Virus record (IMG/VR): IMGVR_UViG_3300028804_000025
Coordinates: 1 to 40,933 of that record
DNA from: a virus
Strand: one strand, 5' to 3'
Length of the DNA: 40,933 nucleotides
Below are positions 36 to 40,933 of the stretch, piece after piece. Made by a program: the position numbers and the translations under genes. Position 1 is the stretch's first letter. Every line of letters begins with the position of its first letter. The notes below the pieces were generated by a model. It was given only the letters and a program-made list of their open reading frames with translations, made no database searches and was not told the DNA's origin.

Positions 36-389
36 CACATCCAAGACGACTACCTGGCTGGTGTCGTCGTGGCCACTAATATGGCCGCCCCCAGCATTGG
101 CCGCACCGTCACCCCTGCAGAGTCGCTGGCCACCGACTTGCTGCGCACCTGCACCCGCCAGGCCGACCAGGTGCACTACCAACAACAAGGCGTCAACGGC
201 GTGGCACAGCGCACGTTTTTGGCCCGCCTGCTCGACATGGAAGACCTGGGCCACGCCGTCACTGCGGAAGTGCGCGACGGTGCCCGTGTTGCCCTGGGTA
301 TCGCCCCAGCTGAGCAAGCCCGCTACACCTGCAGCATGGGCGTTGACATCGATGCTGCGCATGCGCTGCGCGCTGGGGCTGCGCTGTGA
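9..389 (+). CDS. hypothetical early protein (126 aa)
   Basis: ATG 9 overlaps the upstream stop (ATGA, seen at the junction copy). GTGA overlap with the next gene at 386. The first 40 codons are duplicated at 39345-39463. Confidence 0.65.
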   Translation: MSRKASITLHIQDDYLAGVVVATNMAAPSIGRTVTPAESLATDLLRTCTRQADQVHYQQQGVNGVAQRTFLARLLDMEDLGHAVTAEVRDGARVALGIAPAEQARYTCSMGVDIDAAHALRAGAAL

Positions 390-1751: not shown

Positions 1752-2248
1752 GCCGCCGCCACTTCTTTGCGCAGCAGCCCGTGTACCGGCATCGCCCAGT
1801 CCACGCCGACCCAGTCTCGCTGGCCATTGTGCGCGCCTCGCTGATCATGCCCGCCGAGGTGGCCACGGTGATGGCACCCATCCTCAAGAGCCACGTTGCG
1901 CTGCGTGAGGGACTGGGGACGCACTTTCACTGGGTAAATCTGGTGACCGCAGTCGAGATCGGCCTGGCACTGGAAGGTATCGGCGCATTGAAGGGCTCCA
2001 GGGCTACGCTGAAGTGCGCCGAAATGGCGCTCAAGATGATCTATGACCGCGCCATGCGCGACGACGGCACCTGGGTGCCTGTCACGCTGTACCCAGGCGA
2101 GCTGAGCGCATTGCTGAGCCTGGTGGAGACATTTCCGCAGCAGCTGAGCAAGGTGACGCATGGCGAATATAAACGCGCCGAAGCCCGCGCATCGCAGGGC
2201 GTGGTGGCTGCGGGTGGCAAGGTTTATGAGTGGAGGGCAAAGCAATGA
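1748..2248 (+). CDS. hypothetical protein (166 aa)
   Basis: ATGA coupling at 1748. The ORF has no competing frame with protein-like composition. Confidence 0.6.
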   Translation: MSRRHFFAQQPVYRHRPVHADPVSLAIVRASLIMPAEVATVMAPILKSHVALREGLGTHFHWVNLVTAVEIGLALEGIGALKGSRATLKCAEMALKMIYDRAMRDDGTWVPVTLYPGELSALLSLVETFPQQLSKVTHGEYKRAEARASQGVVAAGGKVYEWRAKQ

Positions 2249-2336
2249 CGCCACACCCAGCCGCCACAAATCAACTGTATGTCTAAGTAGCCATTTGCAG
2301 ATTAGCGAATTCTTTCAACCAACCAACGGAGCAACC

Positions 2337-2933
2337 ATGCCCACAACCAATACACCCACGACCCAACAACACTGGCTCGAATCCGCAGGCGGCTATTTCA
2401 GCGGCATCATCATGCTGCACGGCACCCAGCACCGTGTGATCACCGCGCCCGCTGATCAGGGCCAATTCAAAGGCCAATGGCTGCCTGAATACGATGACGT
2501 GCCAGGCGCCCGCAGCTTCTTTGACAGCGCCGCCAATACCCGTGCCATGGCAGAAGCGGGCAGCGTCATTGCCCAGCGTGCCCTGGCCGCCAACATCAAT
2601 GGCTTTACCGACTGGGTCATTCCCGCCCGCGACGTGCTGGAGGTGATGTACCGCGCCCACAAACCCACGACTGACAAAAACTGGATTTATCGCGGCGATA
2701 ACCCCAGCAGCGTACCAGTGGGCTACCCCTACACAGCCGACGCGCCAGCACGCACTGCCGACAAGGATTTTCAAAAGGGCGGCGCCCAGGCCTTTTTGTC
2801 TGACTGGTATTGGTCCAGTACGCAGTCTTCTTCTGACGGCGCCTGGTTTCAGCACTTCAGACATGGGAACCAGAACGTCCTCAACAAGCACTTCGAGTTG
2901 CAAGTCAGGCTCGCCCGCTTGATTCCACTTTGA
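2337..2933 (+). CDS. DUF1566 (Lcl C-terminal domain-like) protein, paralog 1 (198 aa)
   Basis: ATG 2337 follows ACGGAG. The C-terminus WYWSSTQSSSDGAWFQHFRHGNQ...ELQVRLARLIPL fits the DUF1566 signature (W.SST....AW...F..G......VR.VR). Confidence 0.65.
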   Translation: MPTTNTPTTQQHWLESAGGYFSGIIMLHGTQHRVITAPADQGQFKGQWLPEYDDVPGARSFFDSAANTRAMAEAGSVIAQRALAANINGFTDWVIPARDVLEVMYRAHKPTTDKNWIYRGDNPSSVPVGYPYTADAPARTADKDFQKGGAQAFLSDWYWSSTQSSSDGAWFQHFRHGNQNVLNKHFELQVRLARLIPL

Positions 2934-4196
2934 TCCTTCAATCCTTTAATTCTTCACTCTGAAAGTACGTTCATGCGCTTGCACATCCAAAACGTTCATC
3001 TAAATTTTCAGGCCCAGCCGGTGATGGCTTCTGCGATCTTCAAAGCTTTTGCTGAGCAAGATAGACCCGCCGCGACAGATGGCCCAATAGCTGCGCCAGC
3101 CCTACCCCGCGTGGGTATGTATTGGCCCGAGCAAAAGGGCCGCTTCCTGGGCGTGATGCCAGGTCAAGATGGCCGCCCTGATTACGCCCTGATACTTCCA
3201 CGGATCCCTGCAGCCGATCTCGGCAAACGCCCATGGGGTGAACGCGGTAAGGCCATTGACGGCGCTAACAGCGACTTTGACGGCATGCAAAACACCCAGG
3301 CCATGGCCGAAGCTGGCAACGCGCTGGCAAAGGAAATCCTGGCGCTAGAAGCGGATGGTTTCAATGATTACTTCCTGATGAGCCGCAACGAGCTGCGATT
3401 GGCCTACATCGCTGCCGCCGATGCCTTTGATAAAGATGAGTGGCACTGGTCCAGTACGCAGTCTTCTTCTCGCCACGCCTGGTTTCAGAACTTCAACGAT
3501 GGGTACCAGGACGACGACAGCCTCAAGGGCACCGAGTTGCAAGTCAGGCTCGCCCGCTTGATTCCACTTTGATCCTTCAATCCTTTAATTCTTCACTCTG
3601 AAAGTACGTTCATGCGCTTGCACATCCAAAACGTTCATCTAAATTTTCAGGCCCAGCCGGTGATGGCTTCTGCGATCTTCAAAGCTTTTGCTGAGCAAGA
3701 TAGACCCGCCGCGACAGATGGCCCAATAGCTGCGCCAGCCCTACCCCGCGTGGGTATGTATTGGCCCGAGCAAAAGGGCCGCTTCCTGGGCGTGATGCCA
3801 GGTCAAGATGGCCGCCCTGATTACGCCCTGATACTTCCACGGATCCCTGCAGCCGATCTCGGCAAACGCCCATGGGGTGAACGCGGTAAGGCCATTGACG
3901 GCGCTAACAGCGACTTTGACGGCATGCAAAACACCCAGGCCATGGCCGAAGCTGGCAACGCGCTGGCAAAGGAAATCCTGGCGCTAGAAGCGGATGGTTT
4001 CAATGATTACTTCCTGATGAGCCGCAACGAGCTGCGATTGGCCTACATCGCTGCCGCCGATGCCTTTGATAAAGATGAGTGGCACTGGTCCAGTACGCAG
4101 TCTTCTTCTCGCCACGCCTGGTTTCAGAACTTCAACGATGGGTACCAGGACGACGACAGCCTCAAGGGCACCGAGTTGCAAGTCAGGCTCGCCCGC
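2894..4196 (+). repeat. Perfect tandem duplication, period 639 bp (2894-3557 equals 3533-4196)
   Basis: Base-by-base comparison of the two stretches. The repeat starts in the conserved 3' end of paralog 1 (CGAGTTGCAAGTCAGGCTCGCCCGC). Confidence 0.95.
2973..3572 (+). CDS. DUF1566 protein, paralog 2 (199 aa; start could be the internal Met at 3024)
   Basis: WHWSSTQSSSRHAWFQNFNDGYQ...ELQVRLARLIPL. The gene lies inside the perfect tandem repeat. Confidence 0.65.
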   Translation: MRLHIQNVHLNFQAQPVMASAIFKAFAEQDRPAATDGPIAAPALPRVGMYWPEQKGRFLGVMPGQDGRPDYALILPRIPAADLGKRPWGERGKAIDGANSDFDGMQNTQAMAEAGNALAKEILALEADGFNDYFLMSRNELRLAYIAAADAFDKDEWHWSSTQSSSRHAWFQNFNDGYQDDDSLKGTELQVRLARLIPL

Positions 4197-4211
4197 AGAT
4201 TGTTTCTTTAA
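3612..4211 (+). CDS. DUF1566 protein, paralog 3 (identical to paralog 2 except for the last 4 residues, RLFL vs LIPL)
   Basis: The track ORFs are identical in protein sequence. The DNA is identical up to 4196. Confidence 0.65.
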   Translation: MRLHIQNVHLNFQAQPVMASAIFKAFAEQDRPAATDGPIAAPALPRVGMYWPEQKGRFLGVMPGQDGRPDYALILPRIPAADLGKRPWGERGKAIDGANSDFDGMQNTQAMAEAGNALAKEILALEADGFNDYFLMSRNELRLAYIAAADAFDKDEWHWSSTQSSSRHAWFQNFNDGYQDDDSLKGTELQVRLARRLFL

Positions 4212-7084: not shown

Positions 7085-7762
7085 TCACAACAGCCCCTCC
7101 TGCACGCATTCGCGCGGGGGTTCGGGCGGTAGTAGCGTGCCCTGCGCCTGGGCGCGACTGATGCGCTCGCAGGCGATGTCGAAATACTTGCGCTCGCGCT
7201 CGATGCCGGTGAACGCCTTGCCAAGCTGCGCGCACGCTACGCCAGTTGTCCCGCTGCCCATGAACGGGTTTAGCACCGTCTGCGCCTTGTCGGCAAAGTC
7301 CAAGCACCACGCCATCACCTGCACAGGCTTCTGTGTAGGGTGTACCGCGCCATCCTGCGCAATAGCCGCCCGGTTCAGCGTCATGGAGCGCAGCGCCTTG
7401 TCCAGCGTGCTGTACGCCAGTTCGCAGTCGCTCTGGCTGATCCGCTGCCCCTTGTCCCACACCAGCCACCCCATGCTTGGCCTCAGGTGCTGCGGGTAGT
7501 AGTTGGCGCCCCAAATAATCAGGTTCGCGGCCTTCTCGTGCATCAACCCGAACAGCCACGCGGGCGGTGCGTCAGCGTCCCAGCCCATGAACTCATAGCC
7601 CTTGTGCCCGCCGTGGCTGCTGGTGCTCGGTGGCTTGCCGTCGCGGCCAATCCCATAGGGCGGGTCCGTCAGCAGCAAGTCGTGCACGGGCAGCAGCGGC
7701 AGCACCTCGCGGCAGTCTCCGTGCCACAGTTCCGCGTTCCCGATCACTACTTTCTCAGCCAC
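7085..7762 (-). CDS. DNA N6-adenine/N4-cytosine methyltransferase, beta class (225 aa, GTG start)
   Basis: DPPY (LLLTDPPYGIG) precedes NPFMGSGTTG. AAGGAG lies 6 nt upstream of GTG 7762. Confidence 0.85.
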   Translation of the reverse strand: MAEKVVIGNAELWHGDCREVLPLLPVHDLLLTDPPYGIGRDGKPPSTSSHGGHKGYEFMGWDADAPPAWLFGLMHEKAANLIIWGANYYPQHLRPSMGWLVWDKGQRISQSDCELAYSTLDKALRSMTLNRAAIAQDGAVHPTQKPVQVMAWCLDFADKAQTVLNPFMGSGTTGVACAQLGKAFTGIERERKYFDIACERISRAQAQGTLLPPEPPRECVQEGLL

Positions 7763-7820
7763 TTCAACTCCTTCACGCTTCGGACACAGTGAAACCTAAC
7801 TAGTCGCTCAAGCGGAGCGC

Positions 7821-8054
7821 CTACGGCGCCCGCTTAGCTCGAATGTTGTGCGTCAAAATCCGCCATGCAGCCGCCACCACTCCTGGAACTTGCCCATTGC
7901 CAAGGGCTTTAAGTCTGTCCACCCTGTTGGCCACCCCATGAGCCACTCGACCCAAGGCGGGTTCAGTTGCCCATGCGGCATGTGTCGCCCGTCTGCTTTT
8001 TCTTCGCGGGCTACCGCAAAGCTCAAAGAGTCCTGCTTCGCTACTCCGTCCCAT
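7821..8054 (-). CDS. DNA (cytosine-5)-methyltransferase, C-terminal part (same frame; ATG immediately follows the TAA)
   Basis: EPALGRVAHGVANRVDRLKALGNGQVP carries the motif X GN..VP. The frame is continuous with 8594. Confidence 0.7.
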   Translation of the reverse strand: MGRSSEAGLFELCGSPRRKSRRATHAAWATEPALGRVAHGVANRVDRLKALGNGQVPGVVAAAWRILTHNIRAKRAP

Positions 8055-8590
8055 TTAATTGCTGTCTCCATCGTGCAACTCGCATCGCGAGGGCTGTGTG
8101 TTGGTGTTGGCCAAAATCCAGATTCGTTCGCGCTTGTGGTTTGCGCCAATGGCATTCGCTCCCAGCACTCCCCATTCCGCATCGAACCCCATCGCGGCCA
8201 AGTCTCCAAGCACGGTTCCGAGTCCGCGAAGAGTGAGCATTGGGGAGTTTTCCACGAGCACGAAACGGGGTCGTACTTCGCCAATAATCCTTGCCATTTC
8301 CCGCCATAGGCCGGAGCGCTCGCCGGCAAGTCCTGCGCCATTTCCGGCAATCGAAATGTCCTGGCATGGGAAGCCTCCAGAAACCACGTCAACAATTCCG
8401 CGCCAAGGTCTTCCATCAAAGGTCTGCACGTCATCCCACACGGGGAACGGCGAAAGAATTCCATCGTTCTGTCGCTGGCACAGAACAGCAATGGCGTAGG
8501 GCTGCCACTCAACGGCGCACACGGTGCGCCAGCCGAGCAATTTACCGCCGAGTATTCCTCCACCAGCGCCTGCGAAAAGTGCCAACTCAT
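7853..8590 (-). CDS. 245-codon ORF in a second frame overprinting the C5-methyltransferase gene (status uncertain)
   Basis: ATG 8590 lies 8 nt after the same GGAGG. There is no stop for 245 codons. It contains the WPRWGSMRNG, WPTPT and NPPWVEWLMGWPTGWTDL strings. Confidence 0.35.
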   Translation of the reverse strand: MSWHFSQALVEEYSAVNCSAGAPCAPLSGSPTPLLFCASDRTMEFFRRSPCGMTCRPLMEDLGAELLTWFLEASHARTFRLPEMAQDLPASAPAYGGKWQGLLAKYDPVSCSWKTPQCSLFADSEPCLETWPRWGSMRNGECWERMPLAQTTSANESGFWPTPTHSPRDASCTMETAIKWDGVAKQDSLSFAVAREEKADGRHMPHGQLNPPWVEWLMGWPTGWTDLKPLAMGKFQEWWRLHGGF

Positions 8591-36763: not shown

Positions 36764-36804
36764 TATTACATTTGTATTGACTCCAATCTATTACATTTGT
36801 AATA
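36764..36804. promoter_or_regulatory. operator cluster O4-O5
   Basis: O4 TATTACATTTGTATTG at 36764-36779 (imperfect). O5 TATTACATTTGTAATA at 36789-36804 (7-bp perfect arms). Confidence 0.6.
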
Positions 36805-36805
36805 T
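36777..36805 (+). promoter_or_regulatory. rightward early promoter TTGACT-N17-TAATAT
   Basis: -35 at 36777-36782 (overlaps O4) and -10 at 36800-36805 (overlaps O5), 39 nt upstream of ATG 36844. Confidence 0.6.
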
Positions 36806-36843
36806 TCACCCCACACCGCACCCAAAGCGGCATGGAGTGACAG

Positions 36844-38062: not shown

Positions 38063-38229
38063 CCTGCACACACGAATGCGATCAGGGCGACGCATGCACC
38101 TGCGCAGACCCGCTCGATGAATGCGGCCTGTGGATACGTATCCCAGACCTTGTGATGCTGTTGATTGTTGCATGCACCGTAGGCGTCATTCTGGGCGTGA
38201 CGCTGGTGCGGGCTGGGATGGTGGTATGA
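38059..38229 (+). CDS. 56-aa Cys-rich protein with C-terminal TM anchor (not in the ORF track)
   Basis: MTCTHECDQGDACTCADPLDECGLWIRIPDLVMLLIVACTVGVILGVTLVRAGMVV. ATGA overlaps at 38059 and 38226 link it to both neighbours. Confidence 0.45.
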   Translation: MTCTHECDQGDACTCADPLDECGLWIRIPDLVMLLIVACTVGVILGVTLVRAGMVV

Positions 38230-38813
38230 AACAGCGCCCTATCCTATTCAGTGGGCCGATGGTCCGGGCGCTGCTAGATGGCAGCAAGACGCAGACGCGG
38301 CGGGTTTGCAAGCCTGCAATCAAGCATAGTTTGAGTTATGTCATCCCTGTGCAAGACCCCGCGTATCCAGGGCAGCGCCCGCCACACATAACCCCCGGCT
38401 GGTTCGGCGATGAGGAAGGTGACATACAGTTTTACAGCCCATACGGCCAGCCCGGCGATCAGCTTTGGGTGCGCGAGACCTGGGCTCGCACTGTCGTCGG
38501 CGCCGGGACTGCAATGGTGGTGTATCGCGAGGGAGACAACCGAACTGACTATGGTGGCCCTTGGAAGCCTGGAATCCATATGTTCCAGCGGGACAGCCGT
38601 ATAACGCTTGAAATCACAGGCGTGCGCGTTGAGCGCTTGCATGACATCACACGCGGCGATGCCATGGCGGAAGGGTGCCCATTCCCAAACATGGCAGATG
38701 GCGATGATCCAAGAAAGTGGTACTCCGACCTATGGAATTCCATAAACGGAACCGATTCGTGGGACTTGAATCCATGGGTCTGGGTCATTGAATTCAAGGC
38801 GGTCAAGCCATGA
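38226..38813 (+). CDS. ASCH-like domain protein (195 aa)
   Basis: MKQRPILFSGPMVRALLDGSKTQTRRV...YGQPGDQLWVRETW...ITLEITGVRVERL pattern, common in phage ASCH-annotated proteins (memory). Confidence 0.5.
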   Translation: MKQRPILFSGPMVRALLDGSKTQTRRVCKPAIKHSLSYVIPVQDPAYPGQRPPHITPGWFGDEEGDIQFYSPYGQPGDQLWVRETWARTVVGAGTAMVVYREGDNRTDYGGPWKPGIHMFQRDSRITLEITGVRVERLHDITRGDAMAEGCPFPNMADGDDPRKWYSDLWNSINGTDSWDLNPWVWVIEFKAVKP

Positions 38814-39043
38814 CCACCCTAGCCCACCATATCCCCGTGGCCACGATCTACCGCCAGCTGCACAACCCCAGTGCTGGTGCTTTCAGATCCTGCGCACTGT
38901 GCACGCATGGCGACGATCGCGGGCAGCGCTGCTACGCACCCGCCGCACACAGCGGCTTGTACGGCATGTCTGCAGCCGATGCACGGGGCAGCGCTGGCCC
39001 CTGCGGGCCCCACGGTCTATTGCTTGAACTGGAGGCCGCATGA
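38810..39043 (+). CDS. hypothetical Cys-containing protein (77 aa)
   Basis: ATGA coupling at 38810 and at 39040. Confidence 0.5.
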   Translation: MTTLAHHIPVATIYRQLHNPSAGAFRSCALCTHGDDRGQRCYAPAAHSGLYGMSAADARGSAGPCGPHGLLLELEAA

Positions 39044-39348
39044 GCTCCTTTCGCTTACACGTCACCGGCACCGTCACCACCGCCGAATGCCGCTTCCAGC
39101 GCAACGGCATCCCCCAGGTGATTGCCGAGCTGAAGGACGCAAACGGCCAGACCGTGCGCGCCCACCACAACTACCCGGACGCCAGCGCCACCAGCGCATT
39201 TGCTGCCCGCGCCCTGTGCCGCCAGCTCAAAGGCCAACAGGCCCAGCTGGATGCCATCAACCCAAAATTCAAAGCCCGCCGACTTGACTGCGAGGCTTTG
39301 CTGATTACCACCACGCAAACCCTTCAACACAGACAGGACTTGTCATGA
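39040..39348 (+). CDS. hypothetical protein (102 aa)
   Basis: A coupled ORF. Its last about 33 codons lie in direct-repeat copy 1. Confidence 0.55.
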   Translation: MSSFRLHVTGTVTTAECRFQRNGIPQVIAELKDANGQTVRAHHNYPDASATSAFAARALCRQLKGQQAQLDAINPKFKARRLDCEALLITTTQTLQHRQDLS

Positions 39349-39463
39349 GCCGCAAAGCCAGCATCACCCTACACATCCAAGACGACTACCTGGCTGGTGT
39401 CGTCGTGGCCACTAATATGGCCGCCCCCAGCATTGGCCGCACCGTCACCCCTGCAGAGTCGCT
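39241..39463 (+). repeat. 223-bp direct repeat, copy 1
   Basis: 221/223 identical to 40803-40933 plus 36-127 (offset 1562). The mismatches are at 39245 and 39264. Confidence 0.95.
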
Positions 39464-39479
39464 TGGGGTGACATCATGA
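39345..39479 (+). pseudogene. 5' remnant of the 126-aa gene (40 identical codons plus GVTS, then stop), translationally coupled to the DUF5131 gene
   Basis: MSRKASITLHIQDDYLAGVVVATNMAAPSIGRTVTPAESL is identical to the product of 9-128. ATGA overlaps at 39345 and at 39476. Confidence 0.6.
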
Positions 39480-40579
39480 GCGCCGACACCAAAATAGAGT
39501 GGGCAGACCACACCTTTAACCCCTGGATCGGCTGCACTAAGGTGTCACCAGGCTGCGACAACTGCTATGCCGAAGCATGGGACAGGCGTTTTGCGTTGAG
39601 TGGGCACGATATGCATTGGGGCGCTGGCAAGGCCCGCAAGCTAACAAAGACTTGGGGTGACCCGGTGAAGTGGAATCGCCAGCATGAGGCGTTTTTTGCG
39701 CAGCATGGCCATCGTCAGCGGGTGTTTTGCTCAAGCCTTGCGGACGTGTTCGACAACGAGGTCGATCCAAAGTGGCTCAGTGATCTACTCGATCTGATTC
39801 GCCATACGCCGAACTTGGACTGGCTACTGCTTACGAAGCGGATCGGGAACTGGAAAAGCCGGATGCAAGCCGTGCAGGATCATTTAGGTGCAAGGATGGA
39901 CGCTCTCCCCAAGCCAAGGTCAGTCACTGATGAGGAGTCCGACGCGATGAACTGGGTTGGTGCGTGGATTCTCAACAACAGCGTTGATTCGATTCCAGAG
40001 AATGTCTGGCTTGGGGCAACCATCGTCAACCAGGAAGAGGCTGACCGGGACATTCCCAAGCTGCTGGCTGTGCCTGCTGTCAAACGGTTTCTGAGCATGG
40101 AGCCGCTGTTGGGGCCGGTAGACATTCGCGATTACATGTGGCCAGTGCACCCGTCGTGGCCAGCGAAGTACCGTTCACCATCCGAGGCGATCGCTGATGG
40201 AGCAATGGTTACGTACCACAGGCAAGCGCTGATCTCTAAAGCATGGGCTGATTCCCTTGTGAACTGGGTGATTGTCGGCGGCGAAAGCGGACCAAATGCC
40301 CGCCCATTGCACCCCGACTGGGCACGAAGCCTGCGCGATCAGTGCGTAGCGGCTGGCGTGCCGTTTCTGTTCAAACAGTGGGGGGAGTGGAGTCCAGGTA
40401 ACGTGTTCGAAGCTGTTGGAAGTAAGCACGTGACCTGCATCGACCAGTCTGGGCAAGTGCACCCCTACCCGCCTATCTTCGAACCGATATCTGGTATATG
40501 GCGTATGCATCGCATAGGCAAGAAAGCCGCAGGCCGCTTGCTCGATGGCCGCACATGGGATGAGGTGCCAACATGCTGA
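39476..40579 (+). CDS. DUF5131 (phage Gp37/Gp68 family, three-Cys motif) protein (367 aa)
   Basis: KIEWADHTFNPWIGCTKVSPGCDNCYAE, ...WLLLTKR..., ...FLSMEPLLGP..., ...WVIVGGESGPNARP..., ...VPFLFKQWGEW..., ...GRLLDGRTWDE.P. Confidence 0.85.
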   Translation: MSADTKIEWADHTFNPWIGCTKVSPGCDNCYAEAWDRRFALSGHDMHWGAGKARKLTKTWGDPVKWNRQHEAFFAQHGHRQRVFCSSLADVFDNEVDPKWLSDLLDLIRHTPNLDWLLLTKRIGNWKSRMQAVQDHLGARMDALPKPRSVTDEESDAMNWVGAWILNNSVDSIPENVWLGATIVNQEEADRDIPKLLAVPAVKRFLSMEPLLGPVDIRDYMWPVHPSWPAKYRSPSEAIADGAMVTYHRQALISKAWADSLVNWVIVGGESGPNARPLHPDWARSLRDQCVAAGVPFLFKQWGEWSPGNVFEAVGSKHVTCIDQSGQVHPYPPIFEPISGIWRMHRIGKKAAGRLLDGRTWDEVPTC

Positions 40580-40767
40580 CCAACACACACCAAGCTTCCC
40601 CCTGGGACGCGCTGTTGAACCCGATTCGGATGCGGCTGCCTGCGTCTGTGCCGTCTGAGTGGCTCGAGGCGGACAAGCCCAAGGCTGAACTGAGCAAGGC
40701 GGGGCAGGTGCGGGCTGCTGTGAACCTGCTGCGCAGGCATGGATACCGGGTGGAGGTGCCAGCGTGA
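40573..40767 (+). CDS. hypothetical protein (64 aa), cargo partner of the DUF5131 gene
   Basis: ATG 40573 overlaps the DUF5131 stop by 7 nt. GTGA overlap at its own stop. Confidence 0.5.
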   Translation: MLTNTHQASPWDALLNPIRMRLPASVPSEWLEADKPKAELSKAGQVRAAVNLLRRHGYRVEVPA

Positions 40768-40910
40768 AAGCCCGTATGCATCAATGTGCGGCTACCGGGT
40801 GCGCCCGGCTGGATGCCATCAACCCCAAATTCAAAGCCCGCCGACTTGACTGCGAGGCTTTGCTGATTACCACCACGCAAACCCTTCAACACAGACAGGA
40901 CTTGTCATGA
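40764..40910 (+). pseudogene. 3' remnant of the 102-aa gene with a new 15-codon N-terminus (48 aa, GTG start)
   Basis: (M)KARMHQCAATGCAR followed by LDAINPKFKARRLDCEALLITTTQTLQHRQDLS, which is identical to the end of 39040-39348. ATGA coupling to the 126-aa gene. Confidence 0.4.
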
Positions 40911-40933
40911 GCCGCAAAGCCAGCATCACCCTA
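40803..40933 (+). repeat. 223-bp direct repeat, copy 2 (continues across the junction to nt 127)
   Basis: See copy 1. Confidence 0.95.

Follow-up and report, generated by a model that had tools for sequence, protein, structure and literature searches.

In the Hendrix/Hatfull model, mosaicism of phage genomes is said to arise by illegitimate recombination and by accretion of the 'moron' type, with the lambdoid phages and the mycobacteriophages as examples. Classical morons possess a promoter and a terminator of their own, and they are located between genes. By the time phage mosaicism is observed, selection and decay have in most cases trimmed the joints back to the edges of genes. Another type of mobile segment is found in the T4-type phages, in connection with the so-called PeSLs, short promoter/stem-loop regulatory motifs that are present in many copies per genome (PMC2839356). 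A site known in both its filled and its empty form from natural populations, with the scar of a duplication intact, presents a concrete and datable example of the proposed step of a random joint plus selection.

The site described here belongs to the complete genome of an HK97-like siphovirus, IMGVR_UViG_3300028804_000025, which probably infects a member of the Burkholderiales. The window is the whole stretch of 40,933 nt, and all coordinates refer to it. Positions 1-35 are the same as positions 40899-40933, a terminal overlap of 35 bp that gives a circle of 40,898 bp. A scan of all the ORFs of this genome also found two methyltransferase genes, neither of them located among the ten mid-genome ORFs that were scanned against Pfam.

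The repeat, the cargo and the surrounding operon

A segment of 223 bp is present in this genome as a direct repeat of two, and only two, copies, on either side of 1,339 bp of foreign DNA, the cargo (39464-40802, + strand). Copy A, to the left of the cargo, occupies positions 39241-39463, while copy B, to the right, starts at 40803 and continues beyond the circular junction, occupying 40803-40898 plus 1-127 on the circle (in the window, 40803-40933 represents its offsets 1-131, and 1-127 its offsets 97-223). The copies are spaced 1,562 bp apart and are identical at 221 of the 223 positions, the mismatches being A at 39245 versus G at 40807 and A at 39264 versus C at 40826, and the similarity ends sharply at both edges. 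Once the terminal overlap is removed, the repeat and both its mismatches are as claimed in an earlier note on this DNA. Only one other direct repeat longer than 100 nt exists genome-wide, belonging to a tandem paralogue family at 2.2-4.2 kb, so the 223-bp repeat is not a chance match. Both mismatches fall within the first 24 nt, the remaining core of 199 bp being exactly identical. Such an arrangement has a probability of ~0.012 under random placement (our own calculation), and the clustering hints that the left edge of copy B may have an origin other than plain duplication, for example a diverged donor homologue or a conversion tract. As the contig ends fall within copy B, closure of the circle through this copy rests on the 35-bp overlap and on an independent contig (L098, described below).

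The region contains six ORFs, all on the + strand, and every neighbour pair overlaps stop to start. It is bounded by two intact phage genes, one encoding 102 aa (39040-39348), its last 108 nt inside copy A, and one encoding 126 aa (9-389, equal to 40907 onward on the circle); copy A consists of the 3' end of the former and the first 39 codons plus 2 nt of the latter. The second ORF, of 44 aa (39345-39479), is a chimeric remnant in which these 39 codons and 2 nt of the 126-aa gene are fused in frame to four donor codons (GVTS, then a stop), with the TGA overlapping the ATG of the DUF5131 (Gp37/Gp68) gene (367 aa, 39476-40579). The latter is followed by a 64-aa orphan ORF (40573-40767) coupled to its stop, and by a second chimeric remnant, of 48 aa (40764-40910), in which 13 donor codons run in frame into the C-terminal 35 residues of the 102-aa protein. 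This ORF possesses its own GGAGG Shine-Dalgarno sequence, its start region resembles that of the 64-aa ORF, and it ends in a TGA that overlaps the ATG start codon of the 126-aa gene. The overlaps read ATGA at 39345, 39476, and 40907 and GTGA at 40764, and those previously claimed, at 39476, 40764, and 40907, are all present. As to the proposal that the duplicated gene ends serve as translational adaptors, the remnants are indeed in frame, but the couplings at 39476 and 40764 arrived with the cargo, and the phage remnants simply happen to be in frame (a prior of ~1/9). The exact 102-aa protein is encoded on 12 other contigs, while it has no match in Pfam or PHROG and no relatives in IMG/VR. Exact look-ups of the 126-aa, 367-aa, 48-aa, and 44-aa products found none on record, and in the collection searched neither the 44-aa nor the 48-aa product appears among the gene calls.

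The content of the cargo, 1,339 bp with the DUF5131 protein and the 64-aa ORF, is as originally described. Its left end, 12 nt ahead of where DUF5131 starts, includes a Shine-Dalgarno-like sequence, GGGGTGA, and its right end is positioned 39 nt into a donor gene. With the cargo came a Shine-Dalgarno sequence of its own, the closing codons of the gene upstream in the donor and the 13 opening codons of the one downstream, and, with both ends inside donor genes, the breakpoints look random rather than site-specific. Scans of the cargo for promoters and terminators gave counts equal to shuffled expectation and nothing convincing, the only matches being a weak promoter-like site (9/12 positions) in the start region of DUF5131 and a weak terminator-like site inside the gene; neither a promoter nor a terminator was found within the repeat. 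The GC content of the cargo (58.3%, versus 60.1% for the genome) and its dinucleotide signature do not stand out from the rest of the genome, so composition gives no clue to the donor. The 64-aa ORF has a GC3 of 0.77, fitting a coding frame. Among 5.8 billion proteins its product has exact self-matches only, on three contigs, each compatible with the arrangement in the present genome, and tblastn against the DUF5131 loci that were fetched produced nothing significant. Having no homologue besides itself, this ORF cannot be a conserved partner, and the suggestion that it may be an alternative partner of DUF5131 finds no support. ORFs of 72 and 70 aa that follow DUF5131 in contigs L091 and L095 were considered as its relatives and rejected, there being no visible similarity.

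Empty sites and independent junction contigs

Ten contigs with an identical 102-aa gene (L001-L010), originating from two other sample series, possess a single 223-bp segment and no cargo. Their left flank matches the flank of copy A, their right flank matches the flank of copy B, and in all of them the 102-aa gene is directly followed by a 123-133-aa homologue of the 126-aa gene. One of the ten (L008) also has C at the position corresponding to 40826, which is a standing polymorphism. The earlier note had allowed for related phages sharing the filled arrangement; instead, these ten carry the empty site, and an ancient, fixed arrangement is ruled out. It had likewise allowed for an assembly artefact, while the junctions recur in assemblies other than the present one. 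Contig L097 (Logan SRR10398024) is 100% identical to positions 39434-40856, covering both cargo joints and, on its left side, just 30 nt of the repeat. Contig L098 (JGI 3300020046) extends from the cargo through a complete repeat into the 126-aa gene; an additional SNP and a differing 3' mosaic mark it as a separate genome variant sharing the same joint. Both contigs also possess the copy B variants, 40807 G and 40826 C.

In blastn of both flanks against phage GenBank, only this gene was matched, at 68-83% identity, along with a weak match to an Acidovorax phage, and the collection contains no close relative. The 30-mer of the left junction has no matches in IMG/VR, and the 29-mer of the 3' end of the repeat, searched in a collection of metagenome contigs to which the present contig does not belong, was found only in an empty-site contig, ERZ650309. 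The donor of the cargo was not found in the databases, where the next-best DUF5131 proteins are 61-65% identical; in IMG/VR the best relative is 58% identical, and no locus there encodes the 64-aa ORF or the N-terminus of the 48-aa ORF.

The DUF5131 protein and its family

The 367-aa protein matches PF07505 with 299.5 bits versus a cut-off of 28.9 (E 2.3e-89, profile positions 2-243 of 243) and phrog_2045 with E 4e-101. Across 119 homologues, there is no variation at Cys20, Cys27, Cys30, I266, G268, E270, S271, G272, K300, Q301, or G303, and conservation reaches 90% or more at G269, F297, F299, and W302. The DUF5131 assignment made from the sequence, along with the three-Cys, GGESG, and FKQWG motifs, is upheld by the HMMs and by this conservation. 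DUF5131 genes occur in many differing neighbourhoods, with the same protein, P0003, in three contexts, and members of the family are very common in phages and prophages.

As to the enzyme class, the Cys spacing is C20-X6-C27-X2-C30, as opposed to the canonical CX3CX2C of radical SAM proteins. Non-canonical spacings occur in this superfamily, so CX6CX2C does not exclude membership. The protein also matches TIGR04471 (radical SAM mobile pair protein A) locally, and in RadicalSAM.org DUF5131 is listed as Megacluster-5-2, next to 5-3, which is spore photoproduct lyase (PMC9477430). Structure prediction, as had been proposed, resulted in a confident AF2 model with 119 sequences (pLDDT 90, pTM 0.89), an earlier model with 30 sequences having a pLDDT of 66. 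The best PDB fold matches of this model are weak and are to spore photoproduct lyase (probability 0.89-0.99, E 6e-3 to 2e-2), followed at lower ranks by lipoyl synthase, TsrM, and viperin; single-sequence and profile searches of the PDB gave nothing real, and a BFVD fold search gave no informative match. Spore photoproduct lyase is both the top fold match and a member of the neighbouring radical SAM subgroup, but identity to it is 12% with a TM of ~0.3, and the Cys spacing of the cargo protein is the CX6CX2C described above. DUF5131 is predicted to be an enzyme of the radical SAM superfamily, most likely a [4Fe-4S]/SAM radical enzyme that is a relative of spore photoproduct lyase and acts on nucleic acid. 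In the literature searched, we found no tested activity for any member of the family and no mention of 'Gp37 Gp68' or PF07505, and TcmP appeared in gene tables only.

A role in defence or counter-defence may also be considered, as suggested by the matches of the cargo protein to the PADLOC models PDC-M41B and PDC-M30B (E ~1e-50). PDC-M30 and PDC-M41 are multi-gene PADLOC defence candidates of the 'guilt-by-embedding' kind that are not validated (PMC10855318). The locus resembles these candidates, and the DUF5131-TcmP pairing, in the B component, but here this component is phage-encoded and not part of a bacterial defence island, the cargo does not include TcmP, and the adjacent 64-aa ORF is an orphan. 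TcmP models match none of the 107 ORFs in the genome that encode 110 aa or more, in agreement with the earlier statement that a TcmP partner is not present. The ORFs adjoining DUF5131 have no PADLOC match, and the whole-genome PADLOC search detected B components only, with no partner among the best 25 of 93 families.

Origin of the insertion and its place among known systems

The insertion is recent, given the 99% identity of the repeats and the frequent occurrence of empty sites among relatives. That the cargo was recently acquired and is bracketed by duplicated gene ends, the central claim of the first reading of this DNA, is supported by the empty sites, the independent junction contigs and the HMMs. 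It probably originated as an illegitimate insertion of a foreign operon piece through two joints with a stagger of 223 bp. On this view, 1,339 bp from an operon of another phage or prophage, comprising a Shine-Dalgarno sequence, the DUF5131 gene, the 64-aa ORF, and 13 codons from the start of a third gene, would have been joined into a rightward operon of small genes, presumed early, by two non-homologous joints, such as template switching or end joining could produce during co-replication. In the phage sequence, one joint would be positioned after 39463, inside codon 40 of the 126-aa gene, and the other before 39241, at codon 68 of the 102-aa gene. Because of the stagger, the 223-bp stretch would come to lie on both sides of the cargo, and because of this duplication, even with the joints inside both genes, a full-length 102-aa gene would be kept upstream and a full-length 126-aa gene downstream. 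As the two leftover chimeric ORFs are in frame, every stop/start overlap of the operon is retained. The cargo would be expressed by read-through and coupled translation, and selection would have kept this recombinant out of many dead ones. The structure is compatible both with a two-joint event and with sequential events, the donor being absent from the databases. Homologous recombination between the repeats should precisely restore the form with one repeat and no cargo, calculated at 39,336 bp.

A somewhat unlikely alternative is that homology, in place of a second illegitimate joint, accounts for at least one side of the duplication. In one version, a single unequal crossover would have occurred with a related phage already carrying, in order, the DUF5131 gene, the 64-aa ORF, a 48-aa 102-like gene, and the 126-aa gene; in the other, a mini-circle of 1,562 bp (one repeat plus the cargo) from a cargo-bearing relative would have integrated in the Campbell fashion. 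The mismatches in the first 24 nt of copy B, common to L097 and L098, fit such an origin in presenting a diverged edge followed by an identical tract, as does the C at 40826, already present in an empty-site relative. The cargo is found in two backbone variants, the present genome and L098, which shows that it moves or recombines within the phage population, and a precedent exists in repeat-flanked cassettes of T4-type phages, which excise as mini-circles and have been proposed as transfer vectors (PMC2839356). However, no contig of the hypothetical parental phage was found, the three contigs encoding the 64-aa protein all fit the present arrangement, and the 48-aa ORF, with its 13 unrelated codons preceding the 102-aa C-terminus, has the look of an illegitimate joint. 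The mini-circle version, in addition, needs a prior repeat-cargo-repeat structure, and so it explains spread and not origin. A broader proposal appears improbable, that of a general, machinery-free route of 'duplicative splice-in' for operon-embedded genes among related phages, by way of small circles or flank homology, combined with a solo DUF5131, as a radical-SAM relative of spore photoproduct lyase and the 'B' half of PDC-M30/M41 without its partner, that would be kept against constant deletion by acting on DNA, so that the phage evades host defence or excludes competitors.

Very improbable is an artefact in which a strain mixture was threaded through a collapsed repeat, no single genome possessing the repeat-cargo-repeat structure. 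What speaks for it is that the contig ends inside copy B with an overlap of 35 bp only, that the 199-bp identical core could partly be a product of graph collapse, and that the 102-aa gene, the whole repeat and the cargo follow each other in one contig in the present assembly only, L097 being an exact k=31 unitig bounded by the repeat that cannot, for this reason, phase the two copies. However, de Bruijn joins require shared k-mers, so that the cargo molecule itself must carry the end of the repeat on its left and the start of the repeat on its right. Moreover, both joints in L097, and the cargo with the entire repeat and the 126-aa gene in L098, come from separate assemblies; both joints are in frame with all the stop/start overlaps kept, and the private variants of copy B recur in three contigs. 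Finally, an autonomous mobile element (a transposon, or a homing-endonuclease or integron-like cassette), with the repeat as its target-site duplication or attachment site, is hardly credible: a direct repeat does bracket an insert that is missing in relatives, but neither cargo protein has a family match to a transposase, integrase, HNH, or other recombinase, the cargo ends possess no terminal inverted repeats and cut donor genes, the duplication measures 223 bp while known target duplications of transposons measure a few bp, and the DUF5131 family is found in many unrelated contexts that lack this repeat.

The staggered illegitimate insertion that we favour is an event of a well-known kind and an ordinary but clean snapshot of gene gain by a phage. 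It leaves current understanding unchanged, its value being that of a clean case and of an experimental handle, with a natural plus/minus pair for probing the role of DUF5131. It also illustrates how a staggered duplication can rescue an insertion with breakpoints inside genes. As in the mosaicism of the Hendrix/Hatfull model, and as with morons, the extra block is absent from the same place in close relatives and the breakpoints look random, and, likewise, selection keeps only those recombinants whose neighbour genes are functional. Unlike lambdoid morons, the cargo has no promoter or terminator of its own and is wired into the operon by stop/start overlaps; the joints fall within genes, and the 223-bp duplication persists. 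The insertion is an early, not-yet-tidied stage, of a kind rarely caught. With the PeSL cassettes of the T4-type phages, it shares a cassette of non-essential ORFs between direct repeats (PMC2839356), and recombination between the repeats would, in both cases, free a small circle able to re-insert by homology. In contrast to PeSLs, however, the repeat here is a one-off coding duplication of two neighbour genes, with no regulatory motif and no further copies.

The repeat and the insert that it encloses

The window represents a complete HK97-like siphovirus genome. Besides an endolysin and a primase-helicase, it encodes the major capsid protein, portal, prohead protease, both terminase subunits (large and small), tape measure protein and tail tube protein. 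Two DNA methyltransferases, a dcm-like C5 enzyme and a CcrM-like N6/N4 enzyme, were recognized in all-ORF scans (~7088-8590, minus strand, and elsewhere; a DPPY-motif ORF occupies 7088-7762, minus strand). For ORFs of 110 aa or longer, neither the NCBIfam families listed nor 25 of the 26 Pfam families include an integrase. In a self-comparison, bases 1-35 are identical to 40899-40933, and the window is thus a circular contig of 40,898 bp. The 223-bp repeat described in the earlier note is real: 39241-39463 (copy A) recurs at 40803-40898 and 1-127 on the circle (copy B), with 221/223 identities and with the mismatches as reported (39245 A for G at 40807, 39264 A for C at 40826), and no similarity between the copies continues past either repeat end. 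The copies are spaced 1,562 bp start to start, and removal of one such unit from the circle gives 39,336 bp, the size previously proposed for the deletion form. The 35-base overlap sits within copy B (repeat offsets 97-131), as do both window ends; evidently the break in the contig came at the repeat, and its closure into a circle depends on this overlap. The sole other long direct repeat is a tandem family at 2.2-4.2 kb, of three paralogous genes (2160-4211; 257, 199, and 199 aa; phrog_4245; spacing ~639 bp), probably the source of an Lcl_C match in the all-ORF Pfam scan; here, 300 nt at 2885-3184 and 3524-3823 are 99% identical, a second very recent duplication in this genome.

The insertion site belongs to an operon of small, overlapping, rightward genes that diverges from the primase gene and begins after a promoter-like site (36777-36806). 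The order of ORFs is also as first described, with a stop/start overlap at every boundary: the 102-aa gene (39040-39348), a 44-aa chimeric remnant (39345-39479), the gene for the 367-aa DUF5131 protein (39476-40579), the 64-aa ORF (40573-40767), a 48-aa chimeric remnant (40764-40910), and the 126-aa gene (40907 onward, equal to 9-389). On the phage side, one breakpoint interrupts the 126-aa gene at codon 40 and the other the 102-aa gene at codon 68. The cargo (39464-40802) begins 12 nt 5' of the DUF5131 ATG. Within these 12 nt are a Shine-Dalgarno-like GGGGTGA and the closing codons, with the stop, of an upstream donor gene. At its other edge the cargo takes in the first 39 nt of a downstream donor gene, which brings its own GGAGG and whose start region resembles that of the 64-aa ORF. 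As the edges cut donor genes, the donor breakpoints appear arbitrary. Neither cargo protein matches a transposase, integrase or HNH family, inverted repeats were not found at the cargo ends, and promoter and terminator matches in the cargo do not exceed shuffled expectation. Its composition is unremarkable (GC 58.3% versus 60.1% for the genome, within one standard deviation).

Relatives with an empty site

Exact look-up placed the 102-aa protein on 12 contigs, which come from two further sample series (Logan SRR26192xxx and ENA ERZ650xxx). In all ten that were retrieved, the 102-aa gene is directly followed by a 123-133-aa homologue of the 126-aa gene. In each relative, left-side BLAST alignments end at 39463, right-side ones begin at 40803, and the two overlap by exactly one 223-bp unit; the aligned sequences carry a single copy of the segment, with the left flank of copy A and the right flank of copy B. 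The empty sites that the earlier note proposed to look for among related phages therefore exist. Backbone identity is 90-99.8%, with mosaic replacements elsewhere, and one relative, L005, is 98% identical across the insertion site. Immediately 3' of the site, a DUF4406/nucleoside 2-deoxyribosyltransferase-like gene (386-775, 129 aa) is common to the window and L005, and four other relatives (L001-L004) have an unrelated 220-aa gene in this position (L001 6674-7336), another module swap in the same operon.

The DUF5131 protein and its neighbourhoods

The family assignment of the 367-aa protein is firm (PF07505, E 2.3e-89; phrog_2045, E 4e-101). RadicalSAM.org places DUF5131 in radical SAM Megacluster-5-2, beside spore photoproduct lyase at 5-3 (PMC9477430), and the protein carries a C-X6-C-X2-C motif that is invariant among its homologues. 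TIGR04471 ("radical SAM mobile pair protein A") is matched locally, at E 1e-7, far below the cut-off of that model. From 119 homologues, AlphaFold gives a confident model (pLDDT 90.1, pTM 0.89), whose best PDB matches by Foldseek are spore photoproduct lyase entries, with probabilities of 0.89-0.99, E-values of only 6e-3 to 2e-2, and TM ~0.3. The PADLOC defence candidates PDC-M41B and PDC-M30B are matched at E ~1e-50; these two candidates were proposed through "guilt-by-embedding" and have not been validated (PMC10855318).

The protein is a singleton in a collection of 5.8 billion proteins, the next best match being 61-65% identical, and the nearest named homologues belong to Hydrogenophaga, Rhodoferax, and Cupriavidus. 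The single GenBank phage match to the flank is an Acidovorax phage, and we infer from such sequence matches a host in Burkholderiales. As noted earlier, the window lacks TcmP, judged over its ORFs of 110 aa or more. The 64-aa protein has exact copies only, on two further contigs; it is an orphan, and hence the suggestion of an alternative partner lacks comparative support.

Recurrent same-strand neighbours were counted over 85 DUF5131 loci. An integrase is present in 26 of these (by sequence clustering, identity judged from sequence), and precomputed Pfam annotations place Phage_integrase downstream of DUF5131 in two loci (L092, L095). Other neighbours are a phrog_874-like protein (~20-27 loci, mostly just downstream), DUF4224 (19 loci), an ASCH domain protein (10 loci, directly adjacent), and a C5 DNA methyltransferase (10 loci). 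Of the 80 IMG/VR DUF5131 loci, ~20-27 (within L019-L090) have a phrog_874 homologue immediately downstream of DUF5131. The window encodes a phrog_874 protein at 38226-38813 (ORF listed from 38121; N-terminal 26 residues not shown), without a Pfam match; its gene precedes the insertion by 650 bp and is shared by the empty-site relatives. The closest homologue with context, P0002 (61% identity), is encoded directly 3' of bAvd and reverse transcriptase genes, a diversity-generating-retroelement pair, with overlapping stop and start (L091 2224-5209). Another homologue, P0003, occurs as one identical protein in three neighbourhoods (L092, L093, L094). Its upstream neighbour is a gene of 74/75 aa in two of them and is ASCH-like in the remaining one, and an integrase follows in one locus, which shows that the DUF5131 gene moves freely. 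Taken together, the radical SAM listing, motif, TIGR04471, fold and PADLOC matches, and the neighbours weakly suggest that the protein is a radical enzyme with a nucleic-acid substrate, at work in defence or counter-defence. Little is added on function past the confident model and the remote similarity to spore photoproduct lyase.

Origin of the insertion

The simplest account would be illegitimate recombination with a co-resident phage or prophage, through two staggered joints that lie 223 bp apart on the phage side. The segment between them would thereby be duplicated, so that each interrupted gene persists in one intact copy; insertion without a stagger, at either point, would have cost the phage one of the two. 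With both remnants in frame (prior probability ~1/9), the chain of stop/start overlaps stays unbroken. Loss through recombination between the 223-bp repeats would be expected.

A homology-assisted variant, either unequal crossover with a cassette-bearing relative or a 1,562-bp circle that re-integrated in the manner reported for PeSL cassettes of T4-type phages (PMC2839356), seems rather unlikely to us, its main support being the position of both mismatches within the first 24 nt of the repeat (~0.012 if random), followed by 199 identical bases. The copy-B variants are common to all three cargo-bearing contigs, and the C variant alone occurs in the empty-site contig L008, as a standing polymorphism. 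Because the mismatches cluster, are common to the cargo contigs and include one polymorphic in L008, the left edge of copy B may have a separate origin. Such a cluster may also mark a conversion or mosaic boundary.

That assembly artefact produced the repeat-cargo-repeat structure is far less probable, even though the window ends inside copy B and is alone in joining the 102-aa gene to the cargo across the entire repeat. Both joints recur in L097 (Logan, SRR10398024, 1,423 bp), 100% identical to 39434-40856, in which the entire cargo lies between the final 30 nt of the repeat and 54 nt of copy B that hold both the G and the C variant. It is exactly the k=31 unitig expected between two copies of an identical core, and it confirms both joints and cannot phase the copies. 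The right joint recurs in L098 (JGI 3300020046, 964 bp), which carries the final 484 nt of the cargo at 100% identity and all of copy B, where one more SNP accompanies the G and C variants. Its 126-aa gene diverges sharply after window position ~308, indicating a different backbone variant with the same right joint; the tail past the switch (~888-964, window 308-383) shares 88% identity with L005, and the gene thus holds a mosaic breakpoint in its 3' end. Graph assemblers join solely at shared k-mers, so the cargo-bearing molecule itself must have the repeat end on one side and the repeat start on the other, making an artefact unlikely. An old, fixed arrangement is ruled out by the empty sites.

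Overall, the observation stands, and the earlier interpretation proved largely right. Illegitimate recombination is a known route of gene gain in mosaic phage genomes, of which this appears to be a new and well-documented case, its one less common feature being a long duplication scar that preserves both interrupted genes. The event fits the Hendrix-type model, of random joints followed by selection, and would have been caught before decay of the scar.
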